IMG/VR virus record: IMGVR_UViG_3300037137_001027
Location: 1 to 64,000 of that record
Origin: a virus
Direction: 5' to 3' (one strand)
DNA length: 64,000 nucleotides
In this document: piece after piece, positions 2,085 through 27,841 of the stretch
Layout: every line of letters begins with the position of its first letter
Position numbering within the stretch: position 1 is the stretch's first letter
Translations under genes and position numbers: made by a program
Notes under the pieces: generated by a model
The model's database searches: none
What the model was told of the DNA's origin: nothing
The model's input: only the letters and a program-made list of their open reading frames with translations

Positions 2085-4685
2085 TTACGAACAAGGAATC
2101 TTTAATCCGAAAAGATTACCCCAGCTAATGCTTACAAAAGCCCCACCGCCAGCGCCAGGAGTGCCACCTGGACCTACGCTTCCACCGCCTCCACCACCGC
2201 CTCCACCGCCATAATTACTGCCAGGATCACCGCTTCCCCCAGCACCAGAGTTGGAAGCAGCACCAGTACCGCCGCCGCCGCCTACACCATTATAAGAGTT
2301 ACCCCCTTGACCACCAGAGCCGCCATCGCCAAATCCAGCATCAAAACAACCACCTGGGTTTCCTAAATTACCATACCAACCTGGATAACCATAGAAAACA
2401 AAATCACCTGTTGCTGTACCGCCTATTTGACCACTACTTGCCTGAAGAATAGGACCAGTGCCAAATTCAGTTACAACTCCAATATAAATGTTTACAGGAT
2501 AAACTTGACCTGGAATTACATTTATAATAGACGCTGCATAGCCACCACCTCCACCGCCATCGCCACCAGTTCCACCAGGACATGGAAAACTGTCACCCGC
2601 AATGCCACCATCAAAACCATTTCCACCATCTGCTTGACATTCAACTAATATCTGACAAACGCCTTCAGGCACGGTCCAAGTTGTGTTTAAATCTCCACCA
2701 CCAGTTGGAACATCAAAGCTTACTGTTGGCATATTTCTAGTTCTGACACAAGGTAATGATAATCCAGGCGGAAGTGGAGGAAGTAATAAAGCAGCACCAA
2801 GAATATACTTCCTTCTCATGCCAATACCTTTAGTGGCTGTAAATTGATTTAATGGAAGATCGTGTGGTATTGTATTAGTTGTTGGACCTGTATTAATGAA
2901 TTGATGGAAATTAAGCGCATACCCATAACCTGGGCCGATCTTAACTATACGGGGCTTTGTATTAATGTTGACAGGAAGTATAAAGCTTATTGTTTCAGGA
3001 TTGTAACCATTTTTGAGGTACAATGTAGGAGTCATCCCAGCTTTCCAAGCTAACCCATAAGGGGTATTGGTAGGCAAGGACATCACCCCCGTCAAAACGC
3101 CGCTAGTGGTGTTAATTGTATTTAGTTCGAAGTCAGGACTTGCTACAGCCCCGTATAATGTATTATTGGTTGGATGAAAAGATATATCAGGAACCTGTTT
3201 ACTGAAACCTGATCCAACAGGAGTTGCGGCACCAGTAATTTTACTAATAGTTACTAAACCTTCCGTGGCACTGCCGCTTACATACCCAAACAAAACAGAG
3301 TCAGAAGGTCTAATAGCAAGAGCAGTAACATGACTATATCCAGTCGCACCAATAGTTGATATTACTGCACCGTTAGCAGGATTAAGTTCATAAAGGGTAG
3401 ATGGATTATTGCCTGCACCACTCACTGCATAAAGGGTTGCCCCGTCAAAGGCCAATGCCGAAATATTGGCGATACCTATATTGCCTAGTTCAGTTGTAGC
3501 ACCCGTAGAAACATCAACAGTAAGTAAATAAGTAGTGCCTGGTGTCGTAGTACGATCAATAGTATAACATATACCGCTACCATCAAAAGCTAATGAATTG
3601 TCAGTAGTTCTAGTAATTGTAACTGAAGCTGCTACCGCGTTTTGTCCTACAAACAAAAACCCACTGGTACTATCCCAGGACATTGCATTAGCTGATTGAT
3701 ATATTCCACCACCAGTATCTAACTTGATTACAAGATTTGATGTAAAGGTAGAATAAATTAATTCATATATTTCTGTACCAGTTACGCTTGTCAAGCCATA
3801 ATACAAGCGGTCGCCAGCATCAATAGCACTTAAAACTGTACCGCCAGGGCTAAAAGAATTAGATGTAGTTAATGTAGATTTAGAAACTTGACGGAGGACA
3901 TTATCTGTCCCCGTCATTAAGTATAAGTTTCCATCCCCGCCATTTTCAATCCAATATGTATATCCAATAGCGGCATTGCTGGTAACAATGCTGTTTAGAT
4001 TGCTATTTGCTACTTTGAATAGAGCATCAAGGGCTGGGACAGCGAAAGTAGGATTTGCGGTTACATAGAAATGGCTTCCGTCATTAGTCATCCATTGACC
4101 AGCCGCCAACAAACCAACCGCTTCACTGTTTCTTGTTCCGCCACCAGAAGTCGTTGCTGAAGTAAAACTAAAGCTGGATTCTGTAAGGGTAGAAAGCCAG
4201 CTATTTTTACCTCCATCAAATCTCAAGCCATAGACTTTGCCGCCAAGAATTCTAGAATCATACCAATCACCAGATATATCATCGCCGTCGTCACCAGGCG
4301 AATAAACAAATGGAGTGCCTGGTTCTGTAAATGTAGAAATAGTTAATCTTCTAATTCCGTTTTGGTTAAAAAATGATGTTGGATTAGCCCAAATACATGT
4401 TATGTAAATGGTATCATTGGTAGGGTCGGCGTTATAAGTAGTTAAGTAGTAATAATCGCCGTTATCAAACGTCGGGCCTGGTCCCGTAAAATGTTTATAC
4501 GCAGTAATGCTCATGGATGATTGGTTGATCCTCAATAATCTAAATCCACCATATCCATTACCACCAACTGTATTAATAGACGCAAAAACATTGGTTCCAT
4601 CTACAGATAGCCGTGGCCAACCACTGTACGGATTAATCCCATTGGCTGCGTCAGTTAAAATTACAGAACCGAGTACGCTCCACAT
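2085..4685 (-). CDS. Large virion/receptor-binding-like protein: beta-propeller-like repeats plus C-terminal Gly-rich domain
   Basis: Repeats such as LAFDGATLYAV...LYELNPANGA and LAIRPSDSVLFG...ISKITGAATPVG; Gly-rich C-terminus. Confidence 0.6.
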   Translation of the reverse strand: MWSVLGSVILTDAANGINPYSGWPRLSVDGTNVFASINTVGGNGYGGFRLLRINQSSMSITAYKHFTGPGPTFDNGDYYYLTTYNADPTNDTIYITCIWANPTSFFNQNGIRRLTISTFTEPGTPFVYSPGDDGDDISGDWYDSRILGGKVYGLRFDGGKNSWLSTLTESSFSFTSATTSGGGTRNSEAVGLLAAGQWMTNDGSHFYVTANPTFAVPALDALFKVANSNLNSIVTSNAAIGYTYWIENGGDGNLYLMTGTDNVLRQVSKSTLTTSNSFSPGGTVLSAIDAGDRLYYGLTSVTGTEIYELIYSTFTSNLVIKLDTGGGIYQSANAMSWDSTSGFLFVGQNAVAASVTITRTTDNSLAFDGSGICYTIDRTTTPGTTYLLTVDVSTGATTELGNIGIANISALAFDGATLYAVSGAGNNPSTLYELNPANGAVISTIGATGYSHVTALAIRPSDSVLFGYVSGSATEGLVTISKITGAATPVGSGFSKQVPDISFHPTNNTLYGAVASPDFELNTINTTSGVLTGVMSLPTNTPYGLAWKAGMTPTLYLKNGYNPETISFILPVNINTKPRIVKIGPGYGYALNFHQFINTGPTTNTIPHDLPLNQFTATKGIGMRRKYILGAALLLPPLPPGLSLPCVRTRNMPTVSFDVPTGGGDLNTTWTVPEGVCQILVECQADGGNGFDGGIAGDSFPCPGGTGGDGGGGGGYAASIINVIPGQVYPVNIYIGVVTEFGTGPILQASSGQIGGTATGDFVFYGYPGWYGNLGNPGGCFDAGFGDGGSGGQGGNSYNGVGGGGGTGAASNSGAGGSGDPGSNYGGGGGGGGGGSVGPGGTPGAGGGAFVSISWGNLFGLKIPCS

Positions 4686-19173: not shown

Positions 19174-19986
19174 ATGATTAAACTCGCCAACTATGAATGT
19201 AAATACTTTTGTGCGAGCGGAGCGTTGGGGTTTGATGGACGGGGTTATTGGTGGGAGCGACCATTCATTACCCCTGACTGCCTGGCAGTTATAACAAAAA
19301 CCCTGACGTTTCTCCCAAGGAAAGGCAACTATCGCTGGTGGAAATTCTGGAAGACATTTAGAATTAACCGTAAGTATACGCTGAACGCTCTCGGATTGCC
19401 GAATCCAGGCTATGAATACTGGATTAAGAAGATATATCCGAGAATCCGACATAAGAATATTATACCATCCATCTGCCCATTCAATACGGACGAAGCAAGA
19501 GCGATGGTGTTAGCTCTGAATCCCCTTAGTATTCGGGCAATTGAAGTAAATATAAGTTGCCCGACCATAGAGACATTCGACCCAATCGAAATCATTCAGG
19601 CTGTATTGGTGGCTTCCAAACATCCAGTGATAGTCAAAATTGGCGTAAGTCATAACTATCTAAGGCTTTGCGAAGTGTTCCGCAACCGTATTATAATTGA
19701 CGCAATCAATACAGTGCCGTGGGGAGCGGTTCATAAGATACAATCACCGCTTTACCCACTTGAAGGTGGTGTTTCAAATGCTGATACGGCAAAGACTGCA
19801 CGATATGTTTTAACAGACATTAAGAAACGTTACCCTGGCATTCAGGTAATCAGTGGTAATGGTATCTTTGATTACGAAGAAGCGAAGTTAAGGTTTGATT
19901 TAGGTGCTAACGGAATTTCTTTTGGAACAGTATTTGTTCTGACTCCGTGGCGTCCTGAACAGATAATTAAAAGGTTAGAAAAATGA
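19174..19986 (+). CDS. pyrD: Dihydroorotate dehydrogenase-like flavoprotein
   Basis: ASGALG, TKTLTxxPRKGN, NALGLPNPG, EVNISCP, INT and GGVS motifs. Confidence 0.85.
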   Translation: MIKLANYECKYFCASGALGFDGRGYWWERPFITPDCLAVITKTLTFLPRKGNYRWWKFWKTFRINRKYTLNALGLPNPGYEYWIKKIYPRIRHKNIIPSICPFNTDEARAMVLALNPLSIRAIEVNISCPTIETFDPIEIIQAVLVASKHPVIVKIGVSHNYLRLCEVFRNRIIIDAINTVPWGAVHKIQSPLYPLEGGVSNADTAKTARYVLTDIKKRYPGIQVISGNGIFDYEEAKLRFDLGANGISFGTVFVLTPWRPEQIIKRLEK

Positions 19987-20392: not shown

Positions 20393-21101
20393 ACTTGCTT
20401 TAGCCATTGGCTTATTGATCTGTCCTGTTATGATTATGACGGACAGAGAAAGTCTTAAAAACATCTGGCTTGTTGGCATTCTTGCCGCCGTCACATTGGT
20501 TATGGTAAGTATCGGTTTCTACGCAATTAAACTTGAAGAACGAGGTGAGTGATGGGCTGGTTATGCAAGAAAGGTGATACTGTACAGGCGTTGAAAGGCT
20601 GGGAAACATGGCTAGAGAAACCATAAGGGAACATGGAAGACCTTGGTACGCCCGTAGGCATAGACTAAAAAATAATGTCGAGCCTGGCGATCAACCACTG
20701 GTTGAGCCTGGCGATCAACCACTGGTTGCACCAAAATACAGTAGCCGTGATAAGGACATTGAGCGACTTCGCCAAATAGAAATGTTAAGTAGGCAGCATG
20801 AACAACATCGTCTCTTAAAAGAAGCGGGTAAGCCCCCACAACATTGTTTGTTGTTTAAGCAACCCAAACGACGGCAAGAATTAAATAAACCATTACCGCC
20901 GATTCCCACAGATAATAGGATATGTTGTAAATGCAAGGATCATTTTCCATTCCATTTGTTGTCGATTATAGAAGGAAGTCCTGTATGCGGCATATGCTTG
21001 TTAAGGGAGATTTATAAGGACTTTCATTTACTGTCTGTGCAACAATTAAAAATGTACGATGCTACTATCAAGTACAACAAACACAGAAACGATCTTTTTT
21101 A

Positions 21102-21371
21102 ATGGAAATTTGGCACGGCTACCCCCGCAAGGTAGTCGGAAATAAACAAGCCTGTGTGTTCCCTATGACCTACGGCAAGGGCCGCGTCTGTATAGGTCCA
21201 AAGGATGCTCTAACCTACGATAAAGGTTACTGATATGAAGAACATGATGCTGCGGTCGCAGCACTAGAATCCTGGGATGGCAAAAGCGAACCTGATGGCT
21301 GGTTCAGGTGTCCCAATGATGGAAGACGTAGACCAGACGGCGATCCTACTAAAGAGTATTATGAACCATGA
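21102..21371 (+). CDS. Candidate selenoprotein A (89 aa, in-frame TGA at codon 44)
   Basis: TAATG overlap at the start and ATGA overlap at the end; single internal TGA at 21231-21233 followed by a SECIS-like hairpin. Confidence 0.72.
21248..21263 (+). promoter_or_regulatory. Bacterial SECIS-like hairpin
   Basis: TGCTGC-GGTC-GCAGCA; loop starts +21 after the UGA. Confidence 0.68.
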
Positions 21372-22086
21372 GCGCACTTTTGAAAATTCCATCGCTCGAA
21401 GACTCAGACAAAGAAATTTCTGTTGAGATTATGCAGGGCGATGGTTCTGGCGGTCTTTCTTATACGATCTTAACTATTGACGATGGTAAGAAAGAACATA
21501 AAATTGTTTTAGACCTTAAACAAACTGAGATATTAGGTTTGTTTTTGATAGATGGTGTGAGAACCGAACAGGAATTAGTAGACAAATAAGAGGCTACCAG
21601 ATGACTCCCCAAGAGATATTTGAATTCATTCGGGATAATTTGAGCCTGGATTTGGCCGAAGATAGTGGGCGTGACTATGGGGGGCCAAACGGCATGTATA
21701 ACTTCCGTAGTTTTAGGCTAAAGTTAAATTTAACTAACCCAGCCACGGGGAAAGTGGAAGTAATATCTGAACATCAGTTCAGTATCGACTCTAATTGAGG
21801 TTGTACTAGATCAGACATTGAGGTGTAACATGAAAGCACACGAACTAACTCGTCCTGGTCACGGCGTCAAGAAGTTTTGCCTAAAGAATGGGCGGGTCTT
21901 CTGGACTAAGGCACACATGAACGGCGACCGTCGCCGTGTTTGTATCTCCCGCAAGGAAAAGGGGCAAGAAATTAAGCGGTATATTGGACCGCACACTGAG
22001 GTAATTCCAGTATGACCAAAGAAGAATTAGATCGGCAAATAGCGCTAATTGTCACGCAAAAATTCATTGGGAAGAGAGACGGGAAT

Positions 22087-22620
22087 ATGATAAGGGAATT
22101 AGCGAAAAAGTTAGCAGAAAAAGCACACGAAGGACAGTTTCGGAAGTGGTCTAATCCGCCGCAACCATATATTGTTCATCCTATTAGGGTTGCGGACAAG
22201 GTTGCTTCTCTTAAAGGTACAAACGACATTGATGTATCGGCAGCTTACCTCCACGATGTTCTGGAAGATTGTGGGGAACAATACGCTCCGAAAATCTTGG
22301 AGTTATGTGGTGAAGAAGTCTTGAATTTAGTACGAGAATTGACCTTTGAAACGGAAGGTGCGGAGTGGGCGGGTAAGCCGCGAGCGGAAAAGAATAAGGT
22401 TCGCTTCGCTCACATGCGTTCGATGAGTCCCCGAAGCCAAGTCATTAAATTGGTTGACCGCTGGGACAATCTGCTTGATATGAAGAACGCGCCGCACAAG
22501 CTGATTCATAAGACCGTGGACGAATCTTATGTTCTCTTGGAAATCTGCGGTCCTGCGGACCCTGATATGGCAAAGGAATTAGAGACTGTTATCAAGAAGG
22601 TCGAGAAGGGGCGTGCATAG
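22087..22620 (+). CDS. Stand-alone RelA/SpoT-type HD hydrolase (small alarmone hydrolase/Mesh1-like)
   Basis: AHEGQFRK, PYIVHPIRVA, AAYLHDVLED and IKLVDRWDNL; alternative start at 22012. Confidence 0.85.
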   Translation: MIRELAKKLAEKAHEGQFRKWSNPPQPYIVHPIRVADKVASLKGTNDIDVSAAYLHDVLEDCGEQYAPKILELCGEEVLNLVRELTFETEGAEWAGKPRAEKNKVRFAHMRSMSPRSQVIKLVDRWDNLLDMKNAPHKLIHKTVDESYVLLEICGPADPDMAKELETVIKKVEKGRA

Positions 22621-23632: not shown

Positions 23633-24571
23633 ATGAGTGAAATTGTCCTAGTATTAGGCTATAATGCTGCTGGCAAAAGCACTTACGTCAAGGAATATAC
23701 CGATAAAGGCTATCATCGCCTTAATCGTGATGAGCTAGGTGGTAAACTCGACTCCCTACCGCAAATCCTTACAGATTTGTTTAAGAAGGGAACAAAGAGT
23801 TTCGTTCTCGATAACACCTACGTCAACGTCGAAAGCCGCAAGAGCATTATTGATTGCGGTAAGAAACTCGGTATTCCTGTTCGCGCCGTCTGGCTCACTA
23901 CGTCCTTTGAAGATGCTCAATTCAATGCTTGCCAGCGCATGATCCGCAAGGCTGGCCGTCTGCTTGATCCTGTCGATTTCAAGACAACTAAAGACCCCAA
24001 CCTCTTCCCGCCTGTTGCTCTCTTCACCTATAAAAAGAACTTTGAAGAACCAATGAAGAAAGAAGGGTTTTCGGACGTAGTTATAGTTCCTTTTGTCCGT
24101 AAGAAAGACCCCAAATACTGCAATAAGGCACTCATTTTGGACTATGATGATACGCTGCGGGTGACGGACAACAAACATGGTTATCCGACTAAGCCAAGCG
24201 AAGTAAAGATTCTTCCTGGCCGCAAAGAAAAGATTTCTGAATACGTTAAAAAGGGTTATAAGCTCTTGGGCGCATCCAATCAATCTGGTATTGCTAAGGG
24301 GGTTTTGACAGCGCAAGATGCAGTGGATTGTTTTGAAGAAACAAATCGGCAATTGGGGCATGAAATTGACTATTTCTTCTGCCGTCATTCGATTCCGCCT
24401 GTCGTTTGTTATTGCAGGAAACCCCACACAGGAATTGGGGTTCATTTCATTGAAAAGTATAAGTTAGATGCTTCGCAATGCTGGATGATCGGGGACGCCA
24501 CAAGCGATAAAACATTTGCGGCGCGTTGCGGGTTCAAATATATTGACCAAGCGGAGTTTTTCAATGGATGA
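23633..24571 (+). CDS. Bifunctional polynucleotide kinase / HAD phosphatase (PNKP-like)
   Basis: P-loop GYNAAGKST, VLDNT, HAD DYDDT, SNQSG, RKP and MIGD motifs. Confidence 0.88.
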   Translation: MSEIVLVLGYNAAGKSTYVKEYTDKGYHRLNRDELGGKLDSLPQILTDLFKKGTKSFVLDNTYVNVESRKSIIDCGKKLGIPVRAVWLTTSFEDAQFNACQRMIRKAGRLLDPVDFKTTKDPNLFPPVALFTYKKNFEEPMKKEGFSDVVIVPFVRKKDPKYCNKALILDYDDTLRVTDNKHGYPTKPSEVKILPGRKEKISEYVKKGYKLLGASNQSGIAKGVLTAQDAVDCFEETNRQLGHEIDYFFCRHSIPPVVCYCRKPHTGIGVHFIEKYKLDASQCWMIGDATSDKTFAARCGFKYIDQAEFFNG

Positions 24572-26140: not shown

Positions 26141-27841
26141 ATGAAAACACTTATCTGTCAGACTAATCCTACCCCTAATGATTTTCATGGCAATTGCCAG
26201 CAAATTGTCACTGGACTCCGCGAAGGATATAAAAAGAATGCTGACCTAATCGTATTTCCAGAGTTGGCTATCCCTGGCTATCTCTGTAAGGATATGATGT
26301 TCCGCAAGGGCTTTGTAGATCAAAACCTGGACTGTCTACATAGTCTTCCAGGTTATCTTGAAGCTGATTATGAACCGCATATCGTGATTGGTTATATCGA
26401 CCGTAACTACAGTGGCATGGGCAAACCGTTCCGTAATATGGCGGCGGTATTCCACGGTCGTCGTTTAATTGCCACCTATCAGAAACATCTATTGCCGTTC
26501 TATGACGTTTTCGATGAAGGGCGATACTTCCAGCCTGGTACTGACCTAGCGGTGGTTGAAATCTGCGGTGAAAAATGGGGTATTTGCATTTGCGAAGACC
26601 TATGGAATGACAAAGGTAGTGACGATTACAATTACCAATGCAATCCCCTAGAAGACTACCGCAAGCGTGGTGTTTACAACATCATTAGCATTAATAGCTC
26701 ACCATTCGTGCGCAACAAGCCAAAGAATCGCATGACTATGGTAGCTAAAAGCGCTGATTTGGGGACTATTATCTATTGCAATCAGATTGGTGGTCAGGAC
26801 GAATTGGTATTTGATGGCAATAGTTTTATTGTTGAAAAAGGTCATGTTCGTAGTTGCGCTGGCATGAAGACTTATCAGCTTTATGATAGCGATAACAAGC
26901 TCGATCAATGGGGTTCTATTCTACGCGAAGAAACCTATGATATGCTCCAATTGGGCTTGAAAGACTATATCCGAAAAAGCGGTTTCAAGGAAGTGGTGGT
27001 CGGCTCCAGCGGCGGTATCGACAGCGCATTAGTATTGTCGCTGGCGTGCGATGCTATTGGGCCAGAGAACGTCCACGGTATTCGTATGCCATCCACCATT
27101 AGTAGCGATCATTCTAAGAGTGATGCTGAGCAATTGCATAAGAATTTGGGCTGTCACGATCATTTGGTTCCTATTGACCATGAGCCATTTGTCCAGAATA
27201 TCCTTGGACATTTGTTGAATATGGAAGAACCAAAGCCTATCGCAAATGAGAACATTCAGGCTCGCTTGCGTGGCATGATCCTAATGTATTACTCAAACGC
27301 CTTTAATGCTCTATTGCTTTCAACGGGCAATAAGACTGAATTGGCGCTAGGGTATTGCACACTTTATGGGGACATGAATGGCGGTTTCTGTCCTATTAAT
27401 GACCTGTATAAAATGCAGGTTTATGAAATGGCGCGGTTCTACAACAAAGATGCTCGCATGGGCCGCAAGCCTAATATGATCCCTGAAAACATCTTGAATA
27501 AGGCTCCAAGCGCTGAACTAGCGCCAGGGCAGACGGACGAAGCAAGTTTGTTACCATATCCTGTTTTGGATGCGATTGTTCAGGGTTACGTTGAGCATTT
27601 TATTGGGGATTTCAAAAGCTTTTGGATACATTGTTTTGGTGCAGACATGTTCGCGGCTAAGCATGTGGAAGATGGCGTTCTTGGCAATTGGTTCAAAGGT
27701 AAGGATGCCGAGGAACAATATAACAGAATGCTTCGCTTAATCAATAATAACGAATTTAAGCGGCGGCAAGCTGCTCCTGGTATCAAGGTCACACCAATTG
27801 CGTTCGGTATTGGGCGCAGACTTCCTATCGTTAAAGGTTAA
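26141..27841 (+). CDS. nadE: Glutamine-dependent NAD+ synthetase
   Basis: Nitrilase domain (FPEL, ICEDLW) plus SGGIDSAL, ENIQARLRG, TGNKTE, PSAELAPGQTD and EFKRRQ. Confidence 0.96.
   Translation: MKTLICQTNPTPNDFHGNCQQIVTGLREGYKKNADLIVFPELAIPGYLCKDMMFRKGFVDQNLDCLHSLPGYLEADYEPHIVIGYIDRNYSGMGKPFRNMAAVFHGRRLIATYQKHLLPFYDVFDEGRYFQPGTDLAVVEICGEKWGICICEDLWNDKGSDDYNYQCNPLEDYRKRGVYNIISINSSPFVRNKPKNRMTMVAKSADLGTIIYCNQIGGQDELVFDGNSFIVEKGHVRSCAGMKTYQLYDSDNKLDQWGSILREETYDMLQLGLKDYIRKSGFKEVVVGSSGGIDSALVLSLACDAIGPENVHGIRMPSTISSDHSKSDAEQLHKNLGCHDHLVPIDHEPFVQNILGHLLNMEEPKPIANENIQARLRGMILMYYSNAFNALLLSTGNKTELALGYCTLYGDMNGGFCPINDLYKMQVYEMARFYNKDARMGRKPNMIPENILNKAPSAELAPGQTDEASLLPYPVLDAIVQGYVEHFIGDFKSFWIHCFGADMFAAKHVEDGVLGNWFKGKDAEEQYNRMLRLINNNEFKRRQAAPGIKVTPIAFGIGRRLPIVKG

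Follow-up and report, generated by a model that had tools for sequence, protein, structure and literature searches.

Does a TGA codon lying within an apparent 270-bp gap between two phage genes terminate a short reading frame, or is it read as an amino acid? The question is raised by the window, i.e., the whole stretch of 64,000 nucleotides analysed here (positions 1 to 64,000 of the IMG/VR virus record IMGVR_UViG_3300037137_001027), where an earlier note, made from the sequence alone, had placed a candidate selenoprotein gene in the gap (hereafter gene A, Table 1). We propose, with a probability of roughly 85%, that gene A is an intact phage gene, the internal UGA codon of which is decoded as selenocysteine (Sec). 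The selenoprotein reading of the earlier note finds support in silico, with Sec as the putative residue inserted.

The reading frame of gene A begins with the ATG at position 21102, which overlaps the stop codon of the upstream gene (TAATG, 21100-21104), and its terminal TGA shares ATGA (21368-21371) with the start codon of the following gene. The 270-bp gap is, as had been claimed, one frame coupled to both neighbours, and the only codon that interrupts it is the TGA previously noticed at 21231, which is codon 44. It is followed by 45 open codons, up to the true stop of gene A, which is a TGA too. No in-frame ATG, GTG or TTG occurs 3' of the internal TGA, which leaves these last 45 codons with no start of their own.

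The same arrangement was found in relatives with about 85% nucleotide identity that originate from other samples (L006-L012; six ERR139506xx runs and SRR13759114). All keep TGA at the same codon and a frame open to the same ATGA overlap, as well as the hairpin that follows the TGA (see below), in which one U-A pair has become U-G through an A-to-G change. Thus, close relatives retain both the TGA and the hairpin, and the occurrence of the TGA in independent assemblies from many samples (SRR13759114, the six ERR139506xx runs, JGI 3300036828 and JGI 3300036785) excludes the assembly error that the earlier note had considered. Comparison of the window with one of these relatives (L007) gave ratios of non-synonymous to synonymous substitution rates (dN/dS) of 0.07 upstream of the TGA (codons 2-43) and of 0.098 downstream of it (codons 45-89; dS, 1.08). 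Strong purifying selection on this frame thus acts alike before and after the TGA, and the two halves form a single gene.

An exhaustive HMMER search extended the family of gene A to 752 representative clusters, the best 150 of which were used for column counts. The column aligned with codon 44 holds a cysteine (Cys) in 111 of these 150 representatives, within a [W/Y]-C-Y motif, and the family also shows conserved Y45, A51 and W58 residues and a G-R-R-R-P motif. Tryptophan and glycine are rare at this position (three of the 150 for tryptophan). The members from cultured phages, namely the Caulobacter Bertelyvirus phages and the Sinorhizobium phage Phosso, are all of the Cys form and annotated as hypothetical; their proteins (CcrBL9 gp257c, phage C2 gp253c and Phosso protein 736; 32-43% identity) read W-C-Y or Y-C-F at this site. 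The W-C-Y that the earlier note had given for phage homologs was therefore correct, and these homologs cover both halves of gene A with their Cys aligned to residue 44.

Because gene callers split the TGA forms, we searched DNA instead of proteins, with a degenerate pattern of the C-terminal motif; being located 3' of codon 44, this pattern is blind to the state of that codon. In IMG/VR, codon 44 turned out to be TGA at 56 loci, TGC at 26, TGT at 14, GAC at three and GAG at one, with neither TAA nor TAG at any locus. TGA is the commonest state among the loci recovered, and the genes that carry it range from 38% to 76% G+C. Since the stop codon is always TGA in IMG/VR, occupies a Cys column and persists across this range of G+C, we regard it as something other than decay. 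In a tree computed after removal of the columns overlapping the hairpin, the TGA forms and the Cys forms each cluster (5 and 3 changes of state, as compared to about 30 in shuffles), and the TGA forms are separated by long branches, in a topology that is poorly resolved given its 79 columns. It can safely be concluded that TGA at codon 44 is an old state, stably inherited and seldom switched, and the sequences indicate that the UGA is ancient and specific (only TGA in IMG/VR). The Sec/Cys pairing expected by the earlier note stands, and its scope, a single phage selenoprotein gene, was understated, as a large phage family is concerned. A metagenome contig (L292, Ga0066703_10020688) carries TAG at codon 44 together with an intact GGTCGC/GGTC/GCGGCC hairpin; this single case may represent a recent lesion, an error or a host tRNA-Sec that reads UAG.

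A hairpin (TGCTGC/GGTC/GCAGCA) lies just 3' of the internal TGA, its loop starting at +21 from the A of the TGA, exactly as previously reported, and it codes for part of the peptide D-A-A-V-A-A-L. According to a 2026 review of prokaryotic selenoproteomes (PMC13188914), the consensus bacterial selenocysteine insertion sequence (SECIS) has a stem of 4-16 bp topped by a loop of 3-9 nucleotides. In this consensus, one or both of the first two loop nucleotides are G (the usual start being G[G/U]), 16-37 nucleotides separate the UGA from the apical loop, and the minimum free energy is −7.5 kcal/mol or lower. The hairpin of gene A agrees with this consensus in all four respects: it has a four-nucleotide GGUC loop on a 6-bp stem, a G in the first loop positions, 20 nucleotides between the UGA and the loop (21234-21253) and a minimum free energy of −9.1 kcal/mol. 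It also shares its GGUC tetraloop with the SECIS of Escherichia coli fdhF, which the earlier note had cited and which we read directly in NC_000913.3, where the loop occupies +19 to +22 after the Sec UGA.

We then compared, in IMG/VR, 49 distinct TGA sequences with 36 distinct Cys sequences. A helix of at least 5 bp with a loop starting at +20 to +22 was found in 43 of the TGA forms versus two of the Cys forms (Fisher p 3.8e-15), tying the hairpin to TGA and not to Cys. Similarly, G-U at +22/+23 occurs in 44 TGA forms versus two Cys forms (Fisher p 4.8e-16), and the median fold energies are −12.3 and −7.05 kcal/mol, respectively (Mann-Whitney p 4e-8). The metagenomes replicated this pattern, with G-U present in 22 of at least 23 distinct TGA forms (22 of them new) and in one of at least 11 Cys forms. 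The loop has four nucleotides and starts exactly at +21 in 35 of the 49 TGA forms; GGUC is the most frequent sequence, beside AGUU, CGUGC and CGUGA. The five-nucleotide loops (CGUGC or CGUGA) define a sub-class of TGA forms (L073, L109, L112, L049, L071, L040 and L054), in which the loop is coded by A-V-R or A-V-S instead of A-V-A, with G-U at about the same position; it is a second flavour of the same element.

The stem itself covaries, as the earlier note had suggested looking for in related phages. In a gap-free alignment of the 49 TGA forms we counted 67 double-sided changes, versus 27.3 ± 4.6 in shuffled alignments, none of the 500 shuffles reaching the observed value. One stem pair was seen as GC, CG, UA, UG and AU, and all slid registers of the helix scored far lower. 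How often such hairpins arise by chance was estimated by scanning both strands of the whole 159.5-kb record for stems of at least 6 bp with GGU in a loop of 3-6 nucleotides. This yielded 39 hairpins (about 1.2e-4 per position), of which just two follow a TGA that has a long open frame on either side, both precisely at +21: that of gene A and that of a second gene described below (gene B). The arrangement of TGA and hairpin in gene A is far beyond chance. Together, these sequence comparisons indicate that the hairpin is a conserved, covarying RNA structure that goes with TGA and not with Cys, and that fits the bacterial SECIS model. Since the hairpin accompanies TGA, and the GUN codon of the valine provides the G-U of the loop, the A-A-V-A-A peptide of the TGA forms is largely a protein-level shadow of the RNA element.

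Table 1. Positions in the window of the two candidate selenoprotein genes and of their recoding elements.
Feature	Position	Strand	Details
Candidate selenoprotein gene A	21102..21371	+	89 sense codons, UGA = codon 44, then terminal TGA
In-frame UGA of gene A, proposed selenocysteine codon (U44)	21231..21233	+	Within the family motif [W/Y]-[C/U]-Y
SECIS-type hairpin of gene A	21248..21263	+	5' arm 21248-21253, GGUC loop 21254-21257, 3' arm 21258-21263
Candidate selenoprotein gene B, unrelated to gene A	43216..43527	+	103 codons, UGA = codon 22 (43279-43281)
Hairpin of gene B	43294..43312	+	7-bp stem, AGGUU loop, G/U at +22/+23

From these lines of evidence, we propose the following mechanism. 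The ribosome would reach UGA-44 while the hairpin, located 14-30 nucleotides downstream, presents its GGUC loop to SelB, the Sec-specific elongation factor of the host. SelB would bring Sec-tRNA(Sec), and the 45 further codons would then be translated up to the real stop, to produce a single-domain protein of about 10 kDa. Its Sec would stand at the end of a beta-strand, before the main helix, where many relatives have Cys. We infer that the decoding factor is the SelB of the host, since the examined part of the phage is devoid of tRNA-Sec, SelA and SelB.

Several observations weigh against the decoding of UGA-44 as Sec. The Cys of column 44 is not invariant, as 39 of the 150 representatives have another residue or none aligned there. 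In the closest uninterrupted homolog (P0002, from SRR11849544; 62% identity) residue 44 is missing through a two-residue gap, so that position 44 is dispensable for the fold. The loop of gene A (+21 to +24) lies two nucleotides further from the UGA than that of fdhF, and its stem is a perfect helix that lacks the bulged U; in the upper stem of the fdhF SECIS this bulged U is held to be important. The Rfam models searched with cmscan, at E values up to 10, returned no SECIS family and only a chance snoRNA, which is unsurprising for a short element outside the lineages of those models, as they represent particular lineages and are no general definition of a SECIS. The hairpin overlaps an alanine-rich helix (A-A-V-A-A), the GCN codons of which readily form pairs and so make some of the stem potential cheap to evolve; as a counterpoint, Cys forms with similar peptides have no hairpin. 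Finally, neither tRNA-Sec nor SelA nor SelB was found in the 159.5-kb record, and Sec machinery is linked to the TGA form in one bacterial genome bin only, through a 154-kb contig (see below) that could be a phage placed in the wrong bin. As for P0002, its gap takes out U-Y and W58 is lost too, which looks like a lineage that gave up residue 44.

We considered other explanations for the internal TGA. UGA is the leakiest stop codon in bacteria, and a hairpin-stimulated read-through by a near-cognate tRNA (Trp, Cys or Arg), independent of SelB and yielding products of 43 and 89 residues, would agree with a frame conserved on both sides of the UGA and with a 159.5-kb record lacking Sec machinery. 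We nevertheless consider it unlikely, because the G-U fixed at +22/+23 in 44 of 49 TGA forms, mostly as GGUC, argues for recognition of a specific sequence and not simply for a roadblock, because TGA alternates with Cys and not with Trp, and because the geometry fits the SelB-dependent model. To our knowledge, stimulation of read-through by a downstream hairpin is not established in bacteria. Still a little less probable is the SECIS-directed insertion of Cys, by a tRNA(Sec)-like tRNA charged with Cys and a SelB-like factor, such as Mukai and colleagues reportedly proposed for some bacteria. Where a UGA depends on a SECIS, Sec and Cys are indistinguishable by sequence, and Cys is the alternative residue of the family. 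Such systems would, however, be a rare special case, whereas the phages with the TGA form span 38-76% G+C, which implies many hosts, and the lone bacterial genome associated with the family possesses SelA, the enzyme that makes Sec-tRNA.

The remaining explanations are far less credible. A single base change converts TGC or TGT into TGA, and gene callers do split the gene, leaving 43-residue products in databases, as would be expected from a nonsense mutation, a pseudogene, an assembly or sequencing error, or two small genes. This is hardly tenable in view of the many independent assemblies and deeply diverged lineages that carry TGA, of the other stop codons (no TAA, and TAG once, across the IMG/VR and metagenome matches listed) and of the downstream dN/dS of 0.098; two separate genes are further opposed by the lack of an in-frame start after the TGA and by a model that predicts a single domain. 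We give as little credit to a global reassignment of TGA (to Trp as in code 4, or Gly as in code 25) or to a phage suppressor tRNA. Recoding of stop codons occurs in some large phages, and many tRNAs are present in the closest relative from GenBank, a phage of 595 kb; yet TGA terminates gene A itself, 41 of 55 TGA-form genes and 77 of the 277 long open reading frames of the record, the sole tRNA of which is a tRNA-Glu. Moreover, Trp and Gly are rare at column 44, and a global change of code needs no hairpin. Thus, the decoding of UGA-44 as Sec is the reading that we retain.

The chance scan pointed to gene B, unrelated to gene A, which has 81 open codons after its TGA and a hairpin with a minimum free energy of −9.5 kcal/mol. 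A relative of gene B (L013, 3938-4240), on a 623-kb contig of an independent JGI sample, carries TGA at the same codon (3998-4000). The hairpin is identical in this relative at 19 of 19 bases, for a dS of 0.8-1.5 in the flanking codons, and the dN/dS is 0.14 upstream and 0.27 downstream of the TGA. No Cys-form homolog of gene B was found, and with a single relative gene B is based on less evidence than gene A. The same geometry of genes A and B in one phage fits a single host factor that reads both. Taking the family of gene A and gene B together, we consider it likely that viruses of bacteria encode selenoproteins of their own, and widely so, this phage having at least two unrelated ones.

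The source record, a 159.5-kb IMG/VR viral contig of 43.6% G+C, has an estimated completeness of 79% (CheckV). Its nearest GenBank relative is LR756511.1 (65-76% amino-acid identity for two large proteins), an uncultured phage of 595 kb with a large set of tRNAs, which lacks gene A, gene B and tRNA-Sec, and for the accession of which we found no citing paper. Given the size of this relative and the 623-kb contig that harbours the relative of gene B, the window probably stems from a very large phage (about 600 kb), and the CheckV estimate looks too high. The window had no nucleotide match among cultured phages, and queries with typical members of the TGA class revealed no cultured phage with the TGA form. 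Among the at least 120 stretches listed from bacterial genomes there is one family member, which is of the TGA form and sits on a 154-kb contig in a metagenome-assembled genome of the Dehalococcoidia, and a profile search of 401 genomes of that class found the family in that same genome only. This genome has SelA, with a score of 463 bits, as well as a winged-helix domain of SelB (76.5 bits) and a tRNA-Sec (66.4 bits), and it is consistent, as a single case, with a Sec-using host of the TGA form. The Cys-form cultured phages infect Caulobacter vibrioides, the genome of which gave no SelA match in the control set.

AlphaFold2, run on a 41-sequence alignment, predicted one compact domain spanning both halves of the gene A protein (predicted local distance difference test score, pLDDT, of 94.8), with residue 44 at the end of the strand 41-45 and just before the helix 48-57. 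By analogy, residue 44 could be a redox or nucleophilic active site. Neither Pfam nor PHROGs provided a family for the proteins of gene A, gene B or two homologs, Foldseek found no match in the PDB at an E value of 0.001 or lower, the best hit of a wide VIA-align search (Z of 4.8) was within noise, and the neighbours in the protein atlas are viral hypothetical proteins only. Among about 90 loci, no gene neighbour is conserved beyond near-identical contigs.

Similarly to bacterial selenoprotein genes, gene A has its UGA at a Cys site, with a hairpin just 3' of it within the coding sequence; it differs from them in being encoded by a phage and in belonging to a family with no Pfam, PHROG or PDB relative. 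As compared to bacterial SECIS genes, the phage family has a perfect helix of 6-8 bp and a spacing that is rigidly fixed across very different G+C contents. The cultured jumbo phage homologs of the Cys form share the W-C-Y and G-R-R-R-P motifs with gene A and, unlike it, lack the SECIS hairpin and use TGC or TGT as codon 44. The A1 protein of phage Q-beta is likewise an extended product, made by ribosomes that read past an in-frame UGA; there, it does not matter which residue is inserted, and no hairpin of the SelB type is involved, whereas the UGA of gene A stands in for a conserved Cys and is coupled to a hairpin of specific sequence. The viral selenoproteins listed in a 2021 review of viral recoding (PMC8310308) are only the glutathione peroxidases of the molluscum contagiosum virus and the fowlpox virus, the SECIS of the latter lying in the coding region. 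Like gene A, they are encoded by viruses and depend on the Sec machinery of the host; in contrast to it, they belong to viruses of eukaryotes, derive from a captured cellular glutathione peroxidase and use a eukaryotic SECIS, whereas the family of gene A is mainly viral and has a bacterial-type SECIS. The 2026 review of prokaryotic selenoproteomes (PMC13188914) makes no mention of phage, prophage or virus, and our full-text literature searches found no paper on phage selenoproteins. The bacterial mechanism is known; the phage carrier, the family and its breadth are new.

If our proposal is true, the use of the 21st amino acid extends to viruses of bacteria through a large phage family with alternating Sec and Cys forms, and standard phage annotation systematically cuts such genes in two. 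The TGA form would then imply, and serve as a marker of, a host that uses selenocysteine, and the fitness of the phage would depend on the selenium metabolism of its host. The family would also offer a very compact natural SECIS (6-8 bp stem, GGUC loop and fixed distance), which seems to work across many hosts and could be useful for selenoprotein engineering.

The 43-residue N-terminal fragment of gene A is held in databases as a separate "gene" from several assemblies. A 782-residue peptidase-like NCBI protein (P0006) that was clustered at 90% with this fragment (P0004/P0005) was rejected as an unrelated clustering artefact. The upstream gene of the window (20608-21102) ends in a Cys-rich stretch. 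In the close relative from SRR13759114 (L006, 6001-6400), the start codon of gene A is changed from ATG to AAA, and gene A continues, in frame, an upstream segment of 63 residues that contains two CxxC pairs and resembles a zinc ribbon. Accessory genes of the metabolic or repair type lie around gene A, at 19174-19986, 22012-22620, 23633-24571 and 26141-27841; they comprise a dihydroorotate-dehydrogenase-like gene, an HD_4 domain, a polynucleotide kinase/phosphatase and a glutamine-dependent NAD synthetase (NadE, 215 bits).

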